A stretch of 64,000 nucleotides of DNA from Escherichia coli (GTDB lineage Bacteria > Pseudomonadota > Gammaproteobacteria > Enterobacterales > Enterobacteriaceae), in NCBI RefSeq assembly GCF_048403405.1, contig NZ_CP183129.1. One strand, given 5' to 3'. Below the pieces are notes generated by a model. The model was not told the origin of the DNA, did not search any database, and saw only the letters and a program-made list of their open reading frames with translations. Shown here piece after piece: positions 1 to 39,488 of the stretch. Position 1 is the stretch's first letter, and each line of letters opens with the position of its first letter. The translations under genes and the position numbers were made by a program.

Positions 1-3000
1 TTGCCCGTTCAGTGTCACCGTAATAGTGGTGCCCGCTGGCTGATTGCTGGTGCCGGAAATTTGCAGATCCGCGCCTTTTTCGGTGGCGTTAATTATGTCA
101 TCGGTAGCGATGGTGTTAATGCCAATGGTTGGCGCGGTAAGGTTAACGGTGACCGTGTGCGTTTCGCTGTCGCTATTACCTGCCGCATCGGTAACGGTCG
201 CCATCACGGTTTGCGGGCCGCTACCCAGCGCCGTGACATCCGCCGCCGGAACGCCGACGCTCCAGTTGCCGGAGGCATCCAGCGTCGTGGTGTAGGTTTT
301 ACTGTTTAGCGTGACGGTGACGACATCCCCCGCTTCTCCGCCAGTGCTGGAACCGGAAATCACCAGCGCCTGCCCGTGTTCGGCGGCGTTAATAATATCG
401 TCGCCCGCAATGGTGTTGATGGTAAGTACCGGAACGGTGAGATCCACCGCCAGATTATGCGTGGTGCTCGCCGGGTTGCCCGCTTTGTCATTGACCGTGG
501 CGGTCAGGGTGTGGCTGCCATCGGTCAATGCCTCAAGATCTGCCGCCGGAATATTAATACTCCAGCTACCGTCGGCCTGTACCGTTGCCTGATACGTCTG
601 CACGGTCGGGCTATTGAGCGTTATCGTAACAATCTGCCCTGCCTCGGCAGTGGTGCTGCCGCTCACCGTCACACCCGCATCGGCTTCGCTGGCGTTGACG
701 ATATTGTCGCTGGCAACGGTATTGATAATGATGGTCGGGGCACTGCTATCGACGCTGTAGTTATGCACCGCCGAGGCGCTATTGCCATTAATATTGCTGA
801 CGCTGGCCTGCGTGGAGGCGCTGCCATCGGTTAATAACGCTAAATCGGCAGCGGGAACGGTGGCACTCCAGCTACCATCGCTCGCCACGCTGGCAGTGTA
901 ATTTTTCCCGCCAAAGGTGACGGTGACCGTTTGCCCGGCTTCTACATTTGTGGTGGTGCCGGAAAGGGTTAAATCAGCGCCTTTTTCTGCGCCGTTAATC
1001 ACATCGTCCGTGGCGATAGTGTTGATGGTAATAGCCGCCGGAGTGAGATCCACCGTTACCGGATGCGTAATGCTTATCGGATTTCCGGCGCTACTTTCCC
1101 CGGACACGGCAATATTAATCGTCCCCGCAGGCCAGGCGCTAACCTGCGCCGCCGTGACGCCCACGCTCCAGCTACCATCGGCCTGCACCGCAGTGGTGTA
1201 TTCCACATTATTAATTGTGACGGTAAGCGGCGTGCCTTCAGCCAGCCCCGAGCTGCTGCCGCTGACCACCAGCGCCTGCCCGTGCTCGATGATATTGACC
1301 ACATCATCGCCTGCCACCGTATCGATCCGCAGACCGGGCAGATTGGCGTCGATGGTGATATCCCGCGTGCCGCTGCCGGTGTTGCCGTTTTGATTGGTGA
1401 CCGAGGCGCTCACCGTTAAATCGCCATTACCCAGCGCCTGAATATCTGCCGCCGGAACGCTCACGCTCCAGGTGAGATTGCTGCCCACCGTCGCCGTATA
1501 AGTATTACCGCCCAACGTAATAGTTACCGTGTCGCCATCTTCCGCTCCAGTAACCTGCCCGCTGATGGTTTGCGCGACGCCCGCTTCGGCGGCGTTAATA
1601 ATATCGTCGGTTGCCACCGGGTTAATGGTCACGCCGGGCAGCGCGCTGTCAACCAGCACGTTATGGCTGGCGGTGTTGCTGTTGCCGATACTGCTGGTTA
1701 CCGCCGCCGTTACCGTGTAGTTGGCCTGGCCCAGTGCGGTTACCGCCGATGCCGGAACGGTGACGCTCCAGTTGCCGGAGGCGTCGGTCGTGGTGGTGTA
1801 ATTTTGCCCGTTCAGCGTCACGGTGATGGCGGTATTAACAGGCTGATCGCTGGTGCCGGTAATCTGGACATCGGTTCCTTTTTCGCTGGCGTTAATCACA
1901 TCATCGCCCGCAATGCTGTTAATGCCGATAAGGGGCGCTGCGGTATTGACCGTGACGGTCAATGACTGGCTGCCGCTGTTTCCTGCGCGGTCGGTTACCG
2001 AGACGCTGACAGGATAACTGCCGTCCACCAGTCCGCTGACAACGGAAGCCGGAACACCCAGACTCCAGTTGCCGGAACCATCCACCACCGTGGTGTAATC
2101 GGAATTATTTAACGTAACGGTGACAATATCGCCCGCCTGCGCGCCAGTAACCGTGCCACTGATGATTTGCGCCTGGGTGTGTTCCGGCGTGTTGATGACG
2201 TTATCGGTCGCCACCGGATTAATGGTCACCACCGGAGGCGTGGCATCGACCAGCGCCACCCGTGAAACGCTGGTCGGGTTACCGGCGACATCGTTCACGC
2301 TGGCGGTGACCGTGGCGTTGCCGTCAGCCAGTGCGTCAACATTGGCGGCGGGAACGGTCACGCTCCAGGTGCCGTCGGACTGCACGATGCCCTGATAGGT
2401 TTGCCCATTCAACGTAACGGTCACCGTCTGCCCCGGCTGAGCGTCGGTGGTGCCGGTGATGGGCAAATCCTGCCCGCTTTCGGCGGCGTTAATGATGTTA
2501 TCAGCGGTCAGTGGATCGATGCTCAACGCCGGGGCCTGGCTGTCGACGGTAATGGTGCGGGAGGTGTTGCCGGTATTGCCGCTGAGATCCGTCACAGAAG
2601 CGGTAATCGCCACCGCGCCGTCAGGCAGATTTCCCATCGCGGCGGCAGGTACCGTCAGACTCCAGGAGCCATCAGCCTGCACGGTAGTGGTAAAACTCTG
2701 TCCAGCCAGGGTTACTGTGACGGTTTGTCCTGTCTCGGCCTGTTGAGTGCTACCGGTAAGGGTCAGTGGCGCACCTTTTTCTGCGCCACTGATAATGTCA
2801 TCGCCGGAGACGGTGTTAATGGTGATCAACGGAGAAACACCGACCAGCGTGATTGCTCGAGACGCCGCGCCAGTATTTCCTGCAGCATCTGTCACGGTGA
2901 CGAAAATCGTATTGGCTCCGCGATCCAGCGTGCGGGTTACCGCCGGGTCCAGCGCCACATTCCAGCTGCCATCTGCCAGCACGATGCCCGTCAGGACATG

Positions 3001-3740
3001 AGTGCCCAATTTCACCGTTACCGTATCGCCAGGAGAAGCACCGCTGACTTGTCCGGAGATGATCTGCGCGACGGCCTGCTCGGCATTATTAAGAATATCG
3101 TCGCCCGCCACGGTGTTAACGCTGACCACGGGTGCTGAGGTGTCTACCGTGAAATTCGCGCTGTGGCTGGTGGTGTTTCCTGCCCGATCGCTGACACTGG
3201 CATTGACAGCATAATTACCCTCCGCCAGTGCCTGGACTTCCGTGGCAGGCAGCGTCACTTGCCAGGTTCCGTCGCTACCGACGGTTGCTGTATGGCTTTT
3301 CCCGTTGACGGTCAGTGTTACGGTTTGCCCCGCTTCTGCATTCGACGTGCCGCTCAGTACCAGCGCGACGTTATGTTCCGCAGCACTGATGATGTTGTCC
3401 TGAGCGATGGTGTTGATGGCAAGCGTTGGCGGTTGGGTATCGACCGTTAGCAGCTGCGCGCCGGTGACCGTATTGCCTGTGGCGTCTTTCCCACTGACCA
3501 GCACCGCCTGATTCCCTTCGCCTAACGCCTGTGCATCGGCGGTCGGCACCTGCACGCTCCAGGCACCGTTAGCGCCTACGCTGGTGGTGTAGGTTTTGCC
3601 GTTTAGCGTAACGGTGAGTTCTGTTCCCTGCGCCAGATGGCTACTGGTGCCAGAAAGCGTAAACCCGGCGGCCTGTTCGCTGGCGTTAATAATGTTATCG
3701 CCTGCGGTGGTGGCAACCTGCACGCTGGCCTGACTATTGT
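1..3740 (-). repeat. Tandem array of ~300-bp coding repeats (Ig-like domains) inside the adhesin gene; repeats diverged (~40-60% aa identity by eye)
   Basis: Recurring ~100-aa motif in the hand translation; array start approximate. Confidence 0.7.
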
Positions 3741-4548
3741 CGATGGTTAACGTTATCGAACCGGCGTCAGTGATGGTACTGCCGACAATTTGCACCACTG
3801 ACCAGGTATGTTCACCTGCACTTTGCGTGGGTAACGAGACACTCCAGTGACCGTTGTTGTCTACCTGAGTACTGGCAATAGTATTGCCGTTACTGTCTTT
3901 AATCTGAATAGTCGCCCCCGCCTGCCCGCTGCCGCTAAAGGTTGGCGTGGTGTCATCGGTGATGTCATTGGTGGCGAGAATGCCGCGCTGATCGCCCTGA
4001 TTATCGGTAACTAAGAATGATGGTGTGGCGTTGCCAGGCTCAGCGGGTGGCGTAGGGTTATTAATCACTTCCGTTTTCGAGTCGCCATCACCACCGCTTG
4101 CCAGCAGTGCACCAAGCGCACCACCACCTACCGCCGCCCCCGCCAGCCAACCCCACGGGAAGGCGCTGGTCTGAGCAACGGTATCAAGAAATGGCGCAAT
4201 GCTTTCAATCGCGGTGGTCTGGGCAGTCAGTTCTACGGGGGCTAATCCACCCGCAGCAGTATCGGCAAAGGTGACGTGGGTGAGCTGTTGTCCATCGGCA
4301 AACACCAGTTCCGATTGTTCAGCGGTATTCGCCGCTTGCAGGAAATAACCGTTGCAACGGATCACCGTGCCGTCCTGCATATAGATCAGCAGGTCATTTC
4401 CTTCACGGACGTAACGCGAAACGGCAGAGGCCTGAGCATGAACCTGCACCACGGAAGGCTCATAAATAACAACCGTGACGTCGCCAGGATTAATCAGCGT
4501 TTGTTTGACGGATGTTTTACGCGAAATAACATCAATAATCAGGCTCAT
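1..4548 (-). CDS. Giant surface adhesin / type I secretion substrate, N-terminal ~1515 codons (3' end beyond window start); BapA-like N-terminal domain followed by tandem Ig-like domains
   Basis: Minus-strand frame open from ATG at 4546-4548 (AGGAAT RBS 6 nt upstream) to position 1 with no stop. Hand translation: MSLIIDVISRKTSVKQTLINPGDVTVVIYEP..., then 13 or more ~100-aa repeats (TINTIAGDDIINAAE..ISGTS..GQTVTVTLNG.TYTATV.ADGSWSV.VPAAD..AL.DG..TV.ASVTD.AGN). Plus-strand track ORFs here are antisense artefacts. Confidence 0.85.
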   Translation of the reverse strand, partial: MSLIIDVISRKTSVKQTLINPGDVTVVIYEPSVVQVHAQASAVSRYVREGNDLLIYMQDGTVIRCNGYFLQAANTAEQSELVFADGQQLTHVTFADTAAGGLAPVELTAQTTAIESIAPFLDTVAQTSAFPWGWLAGAAVGGGALGALLASGGDGDSKTEVINNPTPPAEPGNATPSFLVTDNQGDQRGILATNDITDDTTPTFSGSGQAGATIQIKDSNGNTIASTQVDNNGHWSVSLPTQSAGEHTWSVVQIVGSTITDAGSITLTIDNSQASVQVATTAGDNIINASEQAAGFTLSGTSSHLAQGTELTVTLNGKTYTTSVGANGAWSVQVPTADAQALGEGNQAVLVSGKDATGNTVTGAQLLTVDTQPPTLAINTIAQDNIISAAEHNVALVLSGTSNAEAGQTVTLTVNGKSHTATVGSDGTWQVTLPATEVQALAEGNYAVNASVSDRAGNTTSHSANFTVDTSAPVVSVNTVAGDDILNNAEQAVAQIISGQVSGASPGDTVTVKLGTHVLTGIVLADGSWNVALDPAVTRTLDRGANTIFVTVTDAAGNTGAASRAITLVGVSPLITINTVSGDDIISGAEKGAPLTLTGSTQQAETGQTVTVTLAGQSFTTTVQADGSWSLTVPAAAMGNLPDGAVAITASVTDLSGNTGNTSRTITVDSQAPALSIDPLTADNIINAAESGQDLPITGTTDAQPGQTVTVTLNGQTYQGIVQSDGTWSVTVPAANVDALADGNATVTASVNDVAGNPTSVSRVALVDATPPVVTINPVATDNVINTPEHTQAQIISGTVTGAQAGDIVTVTLNNSDYTTVVDGSGNWSLGVPASVVSGLVDGSYPVSVSVTDRAGNSGSQSLTVTVNTAAPLIGINSIAGDDVINASEKGTDVQITGTSDQPVNTAITVTLNGQNYTTTTDASGNWSVTVPASAVTALGQANYTVTAAVTSSIGNSNTASHNVLVDSALPGVTINPVATDDIINAAEAGVAQTISGQVTGAEDGDTVTITLGGNTYTATVGSNLTWSVSVPAADIQALGNGDLTVSASVTNQNGNTGSGTRDITIDANLPGLRIDTVAGDDVVNIIEHGQALVVSGSSSGLAEGTPLTVTINNVEYTTAVQADGSWSVGVTAAQVSAWPAGTINIAVSGESSAGNPISITHPVTVDLTPAAITINTIATDDVINGAEKGADLTLSGTTTNVEAGQTVTVTFGGKNYTASVASDGSWSATVPAADLALLTDGSASTQASVSNINGNSASAVHNYSVDSSAPTIIINTVASDNIVNASEADAGVTVSGSTTAEAGQIVTITLNSPTVQTYQATVQADGSWSINIPAADLEALTDGSHTLTATVNDKAGNPASTTHNLAVDLTVPVLTINTIAGDDIINAAEHGQALVISGSSTGGEAGDVVTVTLNSKTYTTTLDASGNWSVGVPAADVTALGSGPQTVMATVTDAAGNSDSETHTVTVNLTAPTIGINTIATDDIINATEKGADLQISGTSNQPAGTTITVTLNGQ

Positions 4549-4656
4549 AATGGCATTCCTGATAAATGGCGCATATCCTTAGCGAGTCCATTTATCTAAA
4601 TAAGACAAAGGTAATCACTTAACAACGAGGCATACCTGATATTAATAATGGCAGGA

Positions 4657-8577: not shown

Positions 8578-8768
8578 CTTTTGTTAACTCCTTTTTATAG
8601 ATGCGGGAGGTAATTCCTCACCCCGGTGCCGATTTTCAGGCATCCTGATTTAACTTAGCACCCGCAACTTAACTACAGGAAAACAAAGAGATAAATGTCT
8701 AATCCTGATGCAAATCGAGCCGATTTTTTAATCTTTACGGACTTTTACCCGCCTGGTTTATTAATTTC

Positions 8769-13285: not shown

Positions 13286-14938
13286 TTACTGCCAGCTCAC
13301 CTCACCTTTCGGTTCATAAACACTCACATCCAGCGGCGAGCTTTTCTGGATATACGCTTTCAGCACTTCGGCATCAATAAAGCCGGTATTCACATAGCCC
13401 GGTTTGTTATCAAGGCGCGGATATCCATCACCGCCGGTGGCATTGAAGTTTAATGTCGCCATGCGGTAAGTTTTCGCCGGATCGACCGGTTCGCCGTTGA
13501 TTTTCAGGTCGTTGAGTTTGCCGTCTTTCGCCACAAAGCTAACGTTGGCAAATTGCGGGTAGGCACCTGAATCTGGCTTCATTTGTGCGACGGCGGTCAG
13601 GTAATCAATCACCTCTTTACCGGTCATGTCGGCATACACCACCACATTGCCGAATGGCTGCACTTTCAGCACGTTTTTATAGCTGATATCGCCTGCTTCG
13701 ATAGAATCACGAATTCCGCCTCCACTCATCACCGCAAAGTCAGCACCAGTGCGATCCATTTGGGCTGCCAGAATTAACCGCCCCATATTGGTCTGTACAA
13801 AACGCACTTTGTCACGATCGCCTTCCAGACGACCATTGGTTTCGCCTATTTTCACGTCCAGCTGCGCTTTGCCTTTGTTCTGGAACGGCGATAACAGCGA
13901 GATCATTTGCTGGTTTTCAGCGATTTCAGGGGTGTACAGCACGCGCTCGCTTTTCCCGTCTTCCCAGGTCACTTTCTTCTTCAGGTTCACCGGAATCAGC
14001 TGGTAGTTAACCATTTTCATTTCGCCATTACGAAACTCAAAATCAGCCCGTCCCACGTATTTGCCCCACTCATGCGCCTGCACAATCCAGATGCCGTTTT
14101 GTTGATCTGGTTTGCATGGCGTACCCGGCACGTAATCGACCTGTTTTTTGTTTTCTGCCGCCATGCAGACCGGATCTTGCGAGTGACCACCGACGATCAT
14201 CGCCAGCGATCTGGCAGGCAGCGCGCGTGCCATCTCCACATCGCCCGGTGCATTAGAGCCGTGCTCACCATTGTCGTAATGCCCCATATGGGTCGCCGCG
14301 ATAATAATGTCTGGCTTTTCTGTCTGTTGCAGCTCCTGAATCACCAGCTTCGCTTCATCGGCGGGCTTACGGAACTCAATATCGGTGAAGTTTTCTGGGT
14401 TGCCTAACTTCGCTGTGTCATCCGTCGTCAGGCCAATAACGGCAATTTTCAGATCCTGACGCTTAAACAGCGCCCATGGTTTAAACAGGCGCTCGCCGGT
14501 ACTTTTCTGGTAGATATTGGCAGAAAGTAACGGGAACTTTGCCCACTTTTCCTGCTGACGTAATACGGTGAGCGGGTTATCAAATTCATGATTACCGATT
14601 GCCATCGCATCGTAACCCACCAGATTCATGCCGCGAAAATCAGGTTCGGCATCCTGTAAGTCAGACTCGGGCACGCCAGTGTTAATGTCGCCACCGGAAA
14701 GTAGCAACACGCTACCGCCTTCAGCCGCAACCTCTTTGCGGATACCATCCACCAGCGTTTTTTGCGCCGCCAGACCATATTCGCCATATTCATTGCGCCA
14801 AAAATGCCCATGATGATCATTGGTATGCAGAACTGTAATTTTGTAGGTTTTATCCTGCTCATACGCCAGAGCAGTTTCACTCGCCAGTGTAAATGTGGTT
14901 AACAGTGCTAACGCCACGCCCCGCTGCAATAATTTCAT
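13286..14938 (-). CDS. ushA: Periplasmic 5'-nucleotidase / UDP-sugar hydrolase (550 aa)
   Basis: Complete ORF; signal peptide and metallophosphatase motifs (e.g. GNHEFD). Confidence 0.95.
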   Translation of the reverse strand: MKLLQRGVALALLTTFTLASETALAYEQDKTYKITVLHTNDHHGHFWRNEYGEYGLAAQKTLVDGIRKEVAAEGGSVLLLSGGDINTGVPESDLQDAEPDFRGMNLVGYDAMAIGNHEFDNPLTVLRQQEKWAKFPLLSANIYQKSTGERLFKPWALFKRQDLKIAVIGLTTDDTAKLGNPENFTDIEFRKPADEAKLVIQELQQTEKPDIIIAATHMGHYDNGEHGSNAPGDVEMARALPARSLAMIVGGHSQDPVCMAAENKKQVDYVPGTPCKPDQQNGIWIVQAHEWGKYVGRADFEFRNGEMKMVNYQLIPVNLKKKVTWEDGKSERVLYTPEIAENQQMISLLSPFQNKGKAQLDVKIGETNGRLEGDRDKVRFVQTNMGRLILAAQMDRTGADFAVMSGGGIRDSIEAGDISYKNVLKVQPFGNVVVYADMTGKEVIDYLTAVAQMKPDSGAYPQFANVSFVAKDGKLNDLKINGEPVDPAKTYRMATLNFNATGGDGYPRLDNKPGYVNTGFIDAEVLKAYIQKSSPLDVSVYEPKGEVSWQ

Positions 14939-15155
14939 ACTTCTCTCCCTGACCTGATTTCAACGTGTTGAAAAATAGTATGACGCGACATCATAGACAA
15001 GTCTGCGTCCGGTGAAGATAAATCTGCATCCAGATTAGAAATTCTGTATTCAGCGTTGAGACTTCCTTCAGGCGACGCATACAGGTATGTTAGTCGGGTA
15101 ATAATCACAAATAAGATCATTCTTTACATCGCAACCCTGAAAAAGTGACTTTCCT

Positions 15156-35171: not shown

Positions 35172-38324
<3,153 letters not shown>

Positions 38325-38341
38325 TACAACGTGTAATCACT

Positions 38342-38365
38342 AAGGCCGCGCAAGCGGCCTTTTTT
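38342..38365 (+). terminator. Intrinsic terminator of acrAB
   Basis: AAGGCCGC-gcaa-GCGGCCTT followed by TTTTTT, 18 nt after the acrB stop. Confidence 0.8.
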
Positions 38366-38869
38366 ATGCATAACCTACGAACATTAAGGAGTCATTGAAC
38401 CACCAACTCAGGATCTCATACGAAAACCAGTATTAAACACGTATAAAATTCATAAAAAATACTGATTGTTAGTTAATTTATATTAAGTAGCGCTAATAGA
38501 TTTAATAATCCATAATCATTTAGAGGCTATTCTTAATTATTTGCGGTAATTCTTTATTCATTCCTCGGTTATTACGTCATATTCAGAGCAATCCTGGTAT
38601 TAGTGTTACCAATTTCATCTGGCGATAATCCTGAAATGTTATGAACAGTTCGAGCAAACTGCTTTTACCTGCTGCGGGTTAGTGCTAGTATGAAAAAGTA
38701 AGTCCTGTCCCGCTTCCTTCCTAATTGTAATTTTTCGTAATAATGCGATGAAAACCTGCAAAGAGTGGCTTATAGTTAAGCTAACAAACGAGAGGGCAAG
38801 TCCAGGTCAGTAAGTTTTTTCCATCCCGAAAGGTGTCCGTTAGTTCAACCACTAAGAAGGGGACGCGTT

Positions 38870-39244
38870 ATGGATGAATACTCACCCAAAAGACATGATA
38901 TCGCACAGCTTAAGTTTCTCTGTGAAACCCTGTATCATGACTGTCTTGCAAACCTTGAAGAAAGCAATCATGGCTGGGTTAACGACCCAACCTCGGCGAT
39001 CAACCTCCAGTTGAATGAACTGATTGAGCATATTGCGACCTTCGCACTTAATTACAAAATTAAGTATAATGAAGACAATAAGCTCATTGAGCAGATCGAC
39101 GAATATCTGGATGACACCTTTATGTTGTTCAGCAGTTATGGTATTAATATGCAGGATCTTCAGAAATGGCGGAAGTCAGGTAATCGACTATTCCGTTGTT
39201 TTGTCAATGCGACGAAAGAGAATCCTGCGAGTTTATCTTGTTAG
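38870..39244 (+). CDS. tomB: Hha toxicity modulator TomB (YbaJ, 124 aa)
   Basis: Complete ORF; immediately upstream of hha. Confidence 0.9.
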
Positions 39245-39269
39245 AATTATTACAACCATGGGTAGAAGT

Positions 39270-39488
39270 ATGTCCGAAAAACCTTTAACAAAAACCGATT
39301 ATTTAATGCGTTTACGTCGTTGCCAGACAATTGACACGCTGGAGCGTGTTATCGAGAAAAATAAATACGAATTATCAGATAATGAACTGGCGGTATTTTA
39401 CTCAGCCGCAGATCACCGCCTCGCCGAATTGACCATGAATAAACTGTACGACAAGATCCCTTCCTCAGTATGGAAATTTATTCGCTAA
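39270..39488 (+). CDS. hha: Haemolysin expression modulator Hha (72 aa)
   Basis: Track ORF 39024..39488 trimmed to the ATG giving [27 protein letters not shown]. Confidence 0.93.

Follow-up and report, generated by a model that had tools for sequence, protein, structure and literature searches.

A conserved AT-rich spacer between acrB and tomB-hha in Escherichia coli as a probable transcription-control region

The tomB-hha operon of E. coli is preceded by an unusually long non-coding stretch, and the question raised by this locus is whether that stretch is a transcribed leader, the seat of an unrecognised gene or a regulatory region. In the 64,000-nt stretch of E. coli DNA analysed here (hereafter the window), acrB (35175-38324, plus strand, 1049 aa) is followed by tomB (38870-39244, plus strand, 124 aa; Pfam YbaJ, E = 1e-65) and, 25 bp further, by hha (39270-39488, plus strand, 72 aa; Pfam HHA, E = 8e-40), with maa, then ylaC and pdeB downstream. 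The acrB-tomB gap (38325-38869) measures 545 bp, both here and in K-12, and is the largest inter-feature gap of the RefSeq annotation over 50 kb around the locus, the next one being of ca. 245 bp. Its G+C content is 37.4% and falls to 29.5% at 38400-38599, vs. 52-56% for acrB. The first-pass annotation had described an intact Hha/TomB pair behind a 545-bp AT-rich leader, with room for complex regulation or an unannotated small RNA. The long AT-rich gap is real and so is the integrity of the pair, a YbaJ-family and an HHA-family gene lying side by side with tomB first and both encoding proteins 100% identical to those of K-12.

The spacer of the window is 100% identical to that of strain ST2747 and differs from that of K-12 MG1655 (480,709-481,253; K-12 coordinate = 519578 minus window coordinate) by eight SNPs and no indel. 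No annotated feature is present in the spacer of either K-12 or ST2747. A search for a repeat or mobile-element origin of the spacer returned short chance repeats only, and its copy number has a median of one per E. coli genome. In the ST2747 RefSeq annotation, ushA and the BapA-related adhesin gene siiEA are frameshifted pseudogenes (window ca. 1-4550 and ca. 13290-14940). Concerning the pair itself, database proteins of ca. 185-205 aa (P0005, P0008, P0010, P0026 and others) carry both YbaJ and HHA domains in a TomB-Hha fusion-like arrangement; most of them stem from assemblies of raw reads, and a frameshift or an assembly error may have produced them. The control of this operon matters for biofilm formation, persistence and virulence regulation: Hha acts with H-NS in the silencing of virulence genes and of genes acquired horizontally, and its effect is countered by TomB. 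As set out below, the region 38325-38869, with good probability, serves to control the transcription of tomB-hha and is not a transcribed leader.

A TomB-based scan of species-representative genomes provided 80 Enterobacteriaceae loci, in which the tomB-hha pair is syntenic. In 76 of these, acrB lies directly upstream of tomB, and the spacer ranges from 435 to 559 bp with a G+C content of 35-40%; spacer length and AT-richness are conserved across the family. All conservation counts given here refer to 77 aligned spacers, i.e. those of 76 species and that of the window. Within this alignment, conservation takes the form of short islands between variable stretches, and such islands with variable spacing would be typical of protein-binding sites. 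From acrB towards tomB, the first one is the intrinsic terminator of acrB (38342-38367, plus strand), found by a terminator scan, in which a G+C-rich stem of 8 bp with a 4-nt loop precedes a T-run; both stem and T-run are kept in 77/77 spacers. It is followed by an Escherichia-specific segment of ca. 73 bp (38366-38438, plus strand), with a conservation of ca. 0-10% over the 77 spacers, to which every non-Escherichia genus of the alignment opposes gaps. Then comes a distal conserved AT-rich block (38440-38520, plus strand), which holds CTTATTG at ca. 38462-38468 and a -10-like hexamer at 38504-38509 that reads AATAAT in E. coli and TATAAT or TATAGT elsewhere. A short TAAC-N4-ATGAA block (38632-38646) forms a further island, and a fairly conserved stretch runs from the hexamers of the proximal promoter, described below, up to the Shine-Dalgarno sequence. 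The unconserved parts are 38366-38438 and 38600-38720.

Two departures from this general arrangement were observed. In Erwinia amylovora (1004-1357 of locus L085) and in a Pantoea strain (995-1348 of locus L086), acrB is replaced upstream of tomB by a conserved gene of 117 aa, whose two copies share 49% identity and match neither a Pfam nor an NCBIfam family. As for Mangrovibacter (655-1500 of locus L088), its acrB-tomB spacer reaches 846 bp.

A sigma-70 promoter was identified by the promoter scan at 38748-38776 (plus strand), with a -35 hexamer ATGAAA at 38748, a 17-bp spacer and a -10 hexamer TATAGT at 38771, i.e. nine of the 12 consensus positions. A PWM scan found it kept in 74 of the 77 sequences. 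From the position of the -10 hexamer, the E. coli start is predicted near 38783, giving a leader of ca. 87 nt. This proximal promoter agrees with published SELEX, GFP-fusion and Yersinia start-site data: identical hexamers were reported for the tomB/acrB spacer by SELEX with the RpoD holoenzyme, and the -198 to -1 fragment of K-12, whose first position is window 38672, drives GFP expression that rises in an hha mutant and is repressed by Hha overproduction. In S. Typhimurium, of three promoters predicted over the last kilobase before tomB, only the most proximal one is active. The description of the whole gap as a 545-bp leader is therefore not supported, since the conserved promoter leaves a 5' UTR of ca. 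87 nt and places the other ca. 450 bp upstream of the promoter. In the predicted 5' UTR (38783-38869, plus strand), CCATCCC (38821-38827) is complementary to the Shine-Dalgarno sequence AAGGGGA (38857-38863). RNAalifold retains the UCCC:GGGG pairing in 17/17 sequences, without compensatory changes (-5.7 kcal/mol), and the single-sequence fold of the 5' UTR is no stabler than those of shuffled sequences (z = 0.48).

Since the -198 to -1 fragment suffices for both promoter activity and Hha repression, one could suppose that only the proximal ca. 150 bp matter and that the rest of the spacer is tolerated AT-rich padding or what is left of a former gene. The large unconserved parts, 38366-38438 and 38600-38720, would fit this supposition, as would the real 117-aa gene occupying this place in Erwinia and Pantoea. 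It is nevertheless an unlikely account of the spacer: across 76 species its length varies only from 435 to 559 bp, conserved islands are found 280-430 bp upstream of tomB, and a tblastn search of the Enterobacteriaceae spacers gave no trace of the 117-aa gene, so that the idea of a decayed copy of that gene was dropped.

Immediately upstream of the promoter lies an invariant 22-nt block, AATTGTAATTTTTCGTAATAAT (38722-38743, plus strand), which contains a CpxR-type tandem repeat, GTAAT-N5-GTAAT, at 38727-38741. Compared with the CpxR consensus used here (tandem GTAAA-N5-GTAAA, or TTTAC-N4-8-TTTAC), GTAAT-TTTTC-GTAAT matches at eight of ten positions, and its centre is located ca. 49 bp before the predicted start. 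The 17-nt core of the block is exact in 67/77 sequences, the other ten differing at one or two positions, and a CpxR-like block is also present in Erwinia and Pantoea, despite their different upstream gene. Matches with up to two mismatches are common by chance (62 in 64 kb vs. 44 expected, at two mismatches); the motif score alone is thus not significant, and the assignment of the site rests on conservation and on the literature. Concerning the latter, tomB and hha are listed as CpxR targets in RegulonDB, tomB belongs to the CpxR iModulon, and tomB is absent from the direct targets in the CpxR ChIP data of one study. At the Yersinia ymoBA locus, CpxR~P binds (EMSA) the equivalent site, 56 bp upstream of TSS2, a distance equal to that which separates the E. 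coli box from the start predicted here.

Three further observations were made on CpxR-type sequences. The stop codon of the 117-aa gene of Erwinia amylovora and Pantoea overlaps the CpxR-like block. Mangrovibacter has no good copy of this otherwise near-invariant block, its best match having five mismatches. Outside the spacer, a perfect CpxR consensus, GTAAAAGTCCGTAAA, is located at 8734-8748 (minus strand) of the window, in the divergent glsA-copA intergenic region; copA is a known copper- and Cpx-responsive gene, and this site is probably already known.

Further upstream, an RcsAB-box-like palindrome is strongly conserved in most genera, eroded in Escherichia and, apparently, unreported. 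At the orthologous position, TAAGAATATTCCTA or close variants, with zero to two mismatches, occur in 52/77 sequences, and the half-sites of the palindrome follow YARGAAT. TAAGAATATTCCTA is the RcsAB-box consensus and appears verbatim in two Rcs papers; its best matches at flhDC, rcsA, wza and rprA agree with the published RcsAB/RcsB boxes. In K-12, the flhDC match is a two-mismatch site at +5 to +18. The E. coli copy at tomB, TCAGAGCAATCCTG (38583-38596), has five mismatches to TAAGAATATTCCTA and keeps five of the six core positions of the 14-bp TaAGaatatTCctA, no better than what chance produces at other places of the spacer. No link between RcsB and tomB, ybaJ, hha or ymoB was found in the searchable papers, and no mention of the distal islands, i.e. 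the RcsAB-like palindrome and the TATAAT-like block, was found in the searchable literature. Window 38522-38560 holds additional ATTCTTA-type half-sites, at a distance of 25-60 bp from the palindrome on its upstream side; many genera show them as a conserved GGTAWAATTCTTAATT motif that may be another RcsB-like box.

Adjoining the palindrome in E. coli is a PdhR-box-like sequence, TATTAGTGTTACCAATT (38598-38614), with two mismatches to AATTGGTnnnACCAATT. It is the sole PdhR-box match with at most two mismatches in the 64-kb window, although one of its mismatches falls inside the GGT core of the published description of the box, and it is poorly conserved outside Escherichia. PdhR has been reported as a direct regulator of tomB-hha. 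A different, weaker PdhR box named in a published gSELEX table was also considered and set aside, since its sequence sits in acrB, at 37854-37870, and not at the position given in the table.

As for H-NS and Hha, the tomB/acrB spacer was flagged as H-NS-bound in SELEX (in vitro) and Hha binds its own promoter in vivo. The AT-richness expected of a region under H-NS/Hha control is present relative to the surroundings (37% G+C with a minimum of 29.5%, vs. 52-56% in acrB). The complex regulation for which the first-pass annotation had seen room is thus borne out by a conserved CpxR-like site, by PdhR-like and RcsAB-like sites and by the published H-NS binding and Hha repression; the small RNA proposed along with it, discussed below, is not.

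Other promoter-like sites exist in the spacer. One of them (38664-38691, plus strand, TTTACC-16-TAGTAT), a candidate secondary site with a predicted start near 38698, passes the PWM threshold and is weakly conserved. In Yersinia, a second, more distal start (TSS1) lies 188 nt before ymoB, and the position of the 38664-38691 site resembles it; the tomB leader may sometimes, starting from this site, be of ca. 172 nt. The other plus-strand candidate is the distal hexamer at 38504-38509. If tomB-hha were also, or mainly, transcribed from a promoter with this hexamer as its -10 element, the operon would have a 5' UTR of ca. 350 nt that could carry regulatory RNA elements. The TATAAT-like hexamer is indeed promoter-like on the plus strand in 56 of the 77 sequences, and a Rho-termination (bicyclomycin-sensitive) region was reported at K-12 481133 on the minus strand, i.e. 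window position 38445, which implies that some transcription crosses the spacer. E. coli is not among these 56 sequences, however: its AATAAT has no usable -35 and remains below threshold. Moreover, p622, the middle one of the three Salmonella candidate promoters, gave no GFP; its probable counterpart, to judge from positions in a related Salmonella locus, is the distal TATAAT-like block.

The RNA-level evidence also speaks against such a long leader. Consensus folding of the distal region 38434-38622 yielded no supported structure, at 0 kcal/mol for one strand and -1.3 kcal/mol for the other, and a 417-nt stretch folds no better than its shuffles (z = -0.12). As a whole, what was found is a proximal promoter with consensus folds of 0 to -5.7 kcal/mol and z values close to zero, which is not the picture of a long leader or a riboswitch. 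Published Term-seq data place no 3' end inside the spacer on either strand, and conservation lies in short, variably spaced islands of the kind seen at protein-binding sites. A long leader is therefore improbable. A conditional distal promoter near 38509, silenced for instance by H-NS under laboratory conditions, can be put forward as a candidate reading of the hexamer. The first-pass annotation had held that a single proximal start with no conserved blocks in the leader would count against its proposal. The promoter is proximal, which goes against a long leader, but the absence of conserved blocks does not hold, as blocks exist further upstream.

The Term-seq entries for this locus consist of the bicyclomycin-sensitive region and of 3' ends that fall within tomB and at the beginning of hha. 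The 3' end at K-12 480636 (window 38942) is located 72 nt into the tomB ORF and follows a predicted long hairpin (ca. 38891-38942) without a U-tract; pausing, processing or a Rho-related event may account for it.

An independent gene for a small RNA or a small protein would find enough space in the spacer, where short ORFs and a further promoter-like arrangement are present. The latter (TTCATC-17-TACAAT, 38724-38752, minus strand, -10 at 38724-38729) is promoter-like in 63/77 sequences; it lies across the CpxR block and the tomB -35, and the coincidence with these two elements would explain its conservation. From its sequence, it may be either a divergent promoter or a by-product of the CpxR box. 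An Rfam scan of the spacer at a permissive threshold gave nothing above threshold, and the sub-threshold matches to isrD, isrK and Trp leader were discarded, as they reflect the acrB terminator hairpin only. Neither a terminator other than that of acrB nor a conserved structured transcript accompanying a promoter of its own was found in the spacer.

Three ORFs were considered and rejected as conserved small genes. The 10-codon ORF (38366-38398, plus strand, ATG CAT AAC ... TGA) comes directly after the acrB terminator, has no Shine-Dalgarno sequence and falls in the 73-bp segment confined to Escherichia; a 21-aa ORF at 38748 begins on the -35 hexamer; and the peptides that begin with the ATG at 38641, in the ATGAA block, are unrelated from one genus to another. 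Given that no Rfam family reached the threshold, that folding gave no conserved structure for the two strands, and that neither a terminator beyond that of acrB nor, on either strand, a Term-seq 3' end was seen in the spacer, the suggestion of an unannotated small RNA is not upheld, and a separate small RNA or small protein gene is very improbable.

The transcription-control reading can be put together as follows. Transcription of acrB would stop at the intrinsic terminator (38342-38367), and the proximal sigma-70 promoter would transcribe tomB-hha from near 38783, with a leader of ca. 87 nt. Under envelope stress, this promoter would be activated through the CpxR box centred ca. 49 bp upstream of the start. 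H-NS would bind the AT-rich upstream DNA and the AT-rich genes and, together with Hha, exert negative autoregulation, while PdhR and, in most other genera, probably RcsB or RcsAB would bind further upstream and modulate the silencing. The exact start site in E. coli, the action of the distal sites and the binding of RcsB are the parts of this mechanism that we infer.

Most of this regulation is already known: the proximal promoter and the control of tomB-hha by CpxR, PdhR and H-NS/Hha autoregulation are documented. What is added is comparative, namely that the long AT-rich spacer is a family feature, along with an apparently unreported RcsAB-like operator, which is a modest lead. On the strength of the motifs and their distribution, we tentatively suggest a broader scenario, which is possible but rather doubtful as a whole. 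Most Enterobacteriaceae would possess a conserved RcsAB/RcsB operator ca. 165-180 bp upstream of the CpxR box; its decay in Escherichia, with a PdhR box adjoining, would reflect a lineage-specific rewiring of Hha/TomB control; and the distal TATAAT element, or a divergent promoter over the CpxR box, might fire once H-NS silencing is lifted. If this were true, the Rcs and Cpx envelope-stress pathways would converge on the operon of the H-NS co-repressor Hha.

Among known systems, the closest is the published tomB-hha promoter of E. coli, Salmonella and Yersinia (ybaJ-hha, ymoBA): the locus is the same, as are the SELEX hexamers and the Hha-repressed fragment, and beyond the SNPs that separate the spacer from that of K-12 nothing substantive differs. 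Compared with the RcsAB operators of flhDC, rcsA and wza, the tomB palindrome of most genera matches as well as, or better than, the E. coli flhDC, rcsA and wza sites, whereas the E. coli tomB palindrome, a putative site, is eroded and lies ca. 195 bp upstream of the predicted start. With H-NS/Hha-silenced regions such as those of rcsA and csgD, the spacer shares an extended AT-rich upstream tract, H-NS binding (as reported), a weak -35 and several transcription factor sites spread over hundreds of bp. Unlike these regions, the tomB-hha operon encodes the H-NS co-repressor itself, which makes of it an autoregulatory loop.
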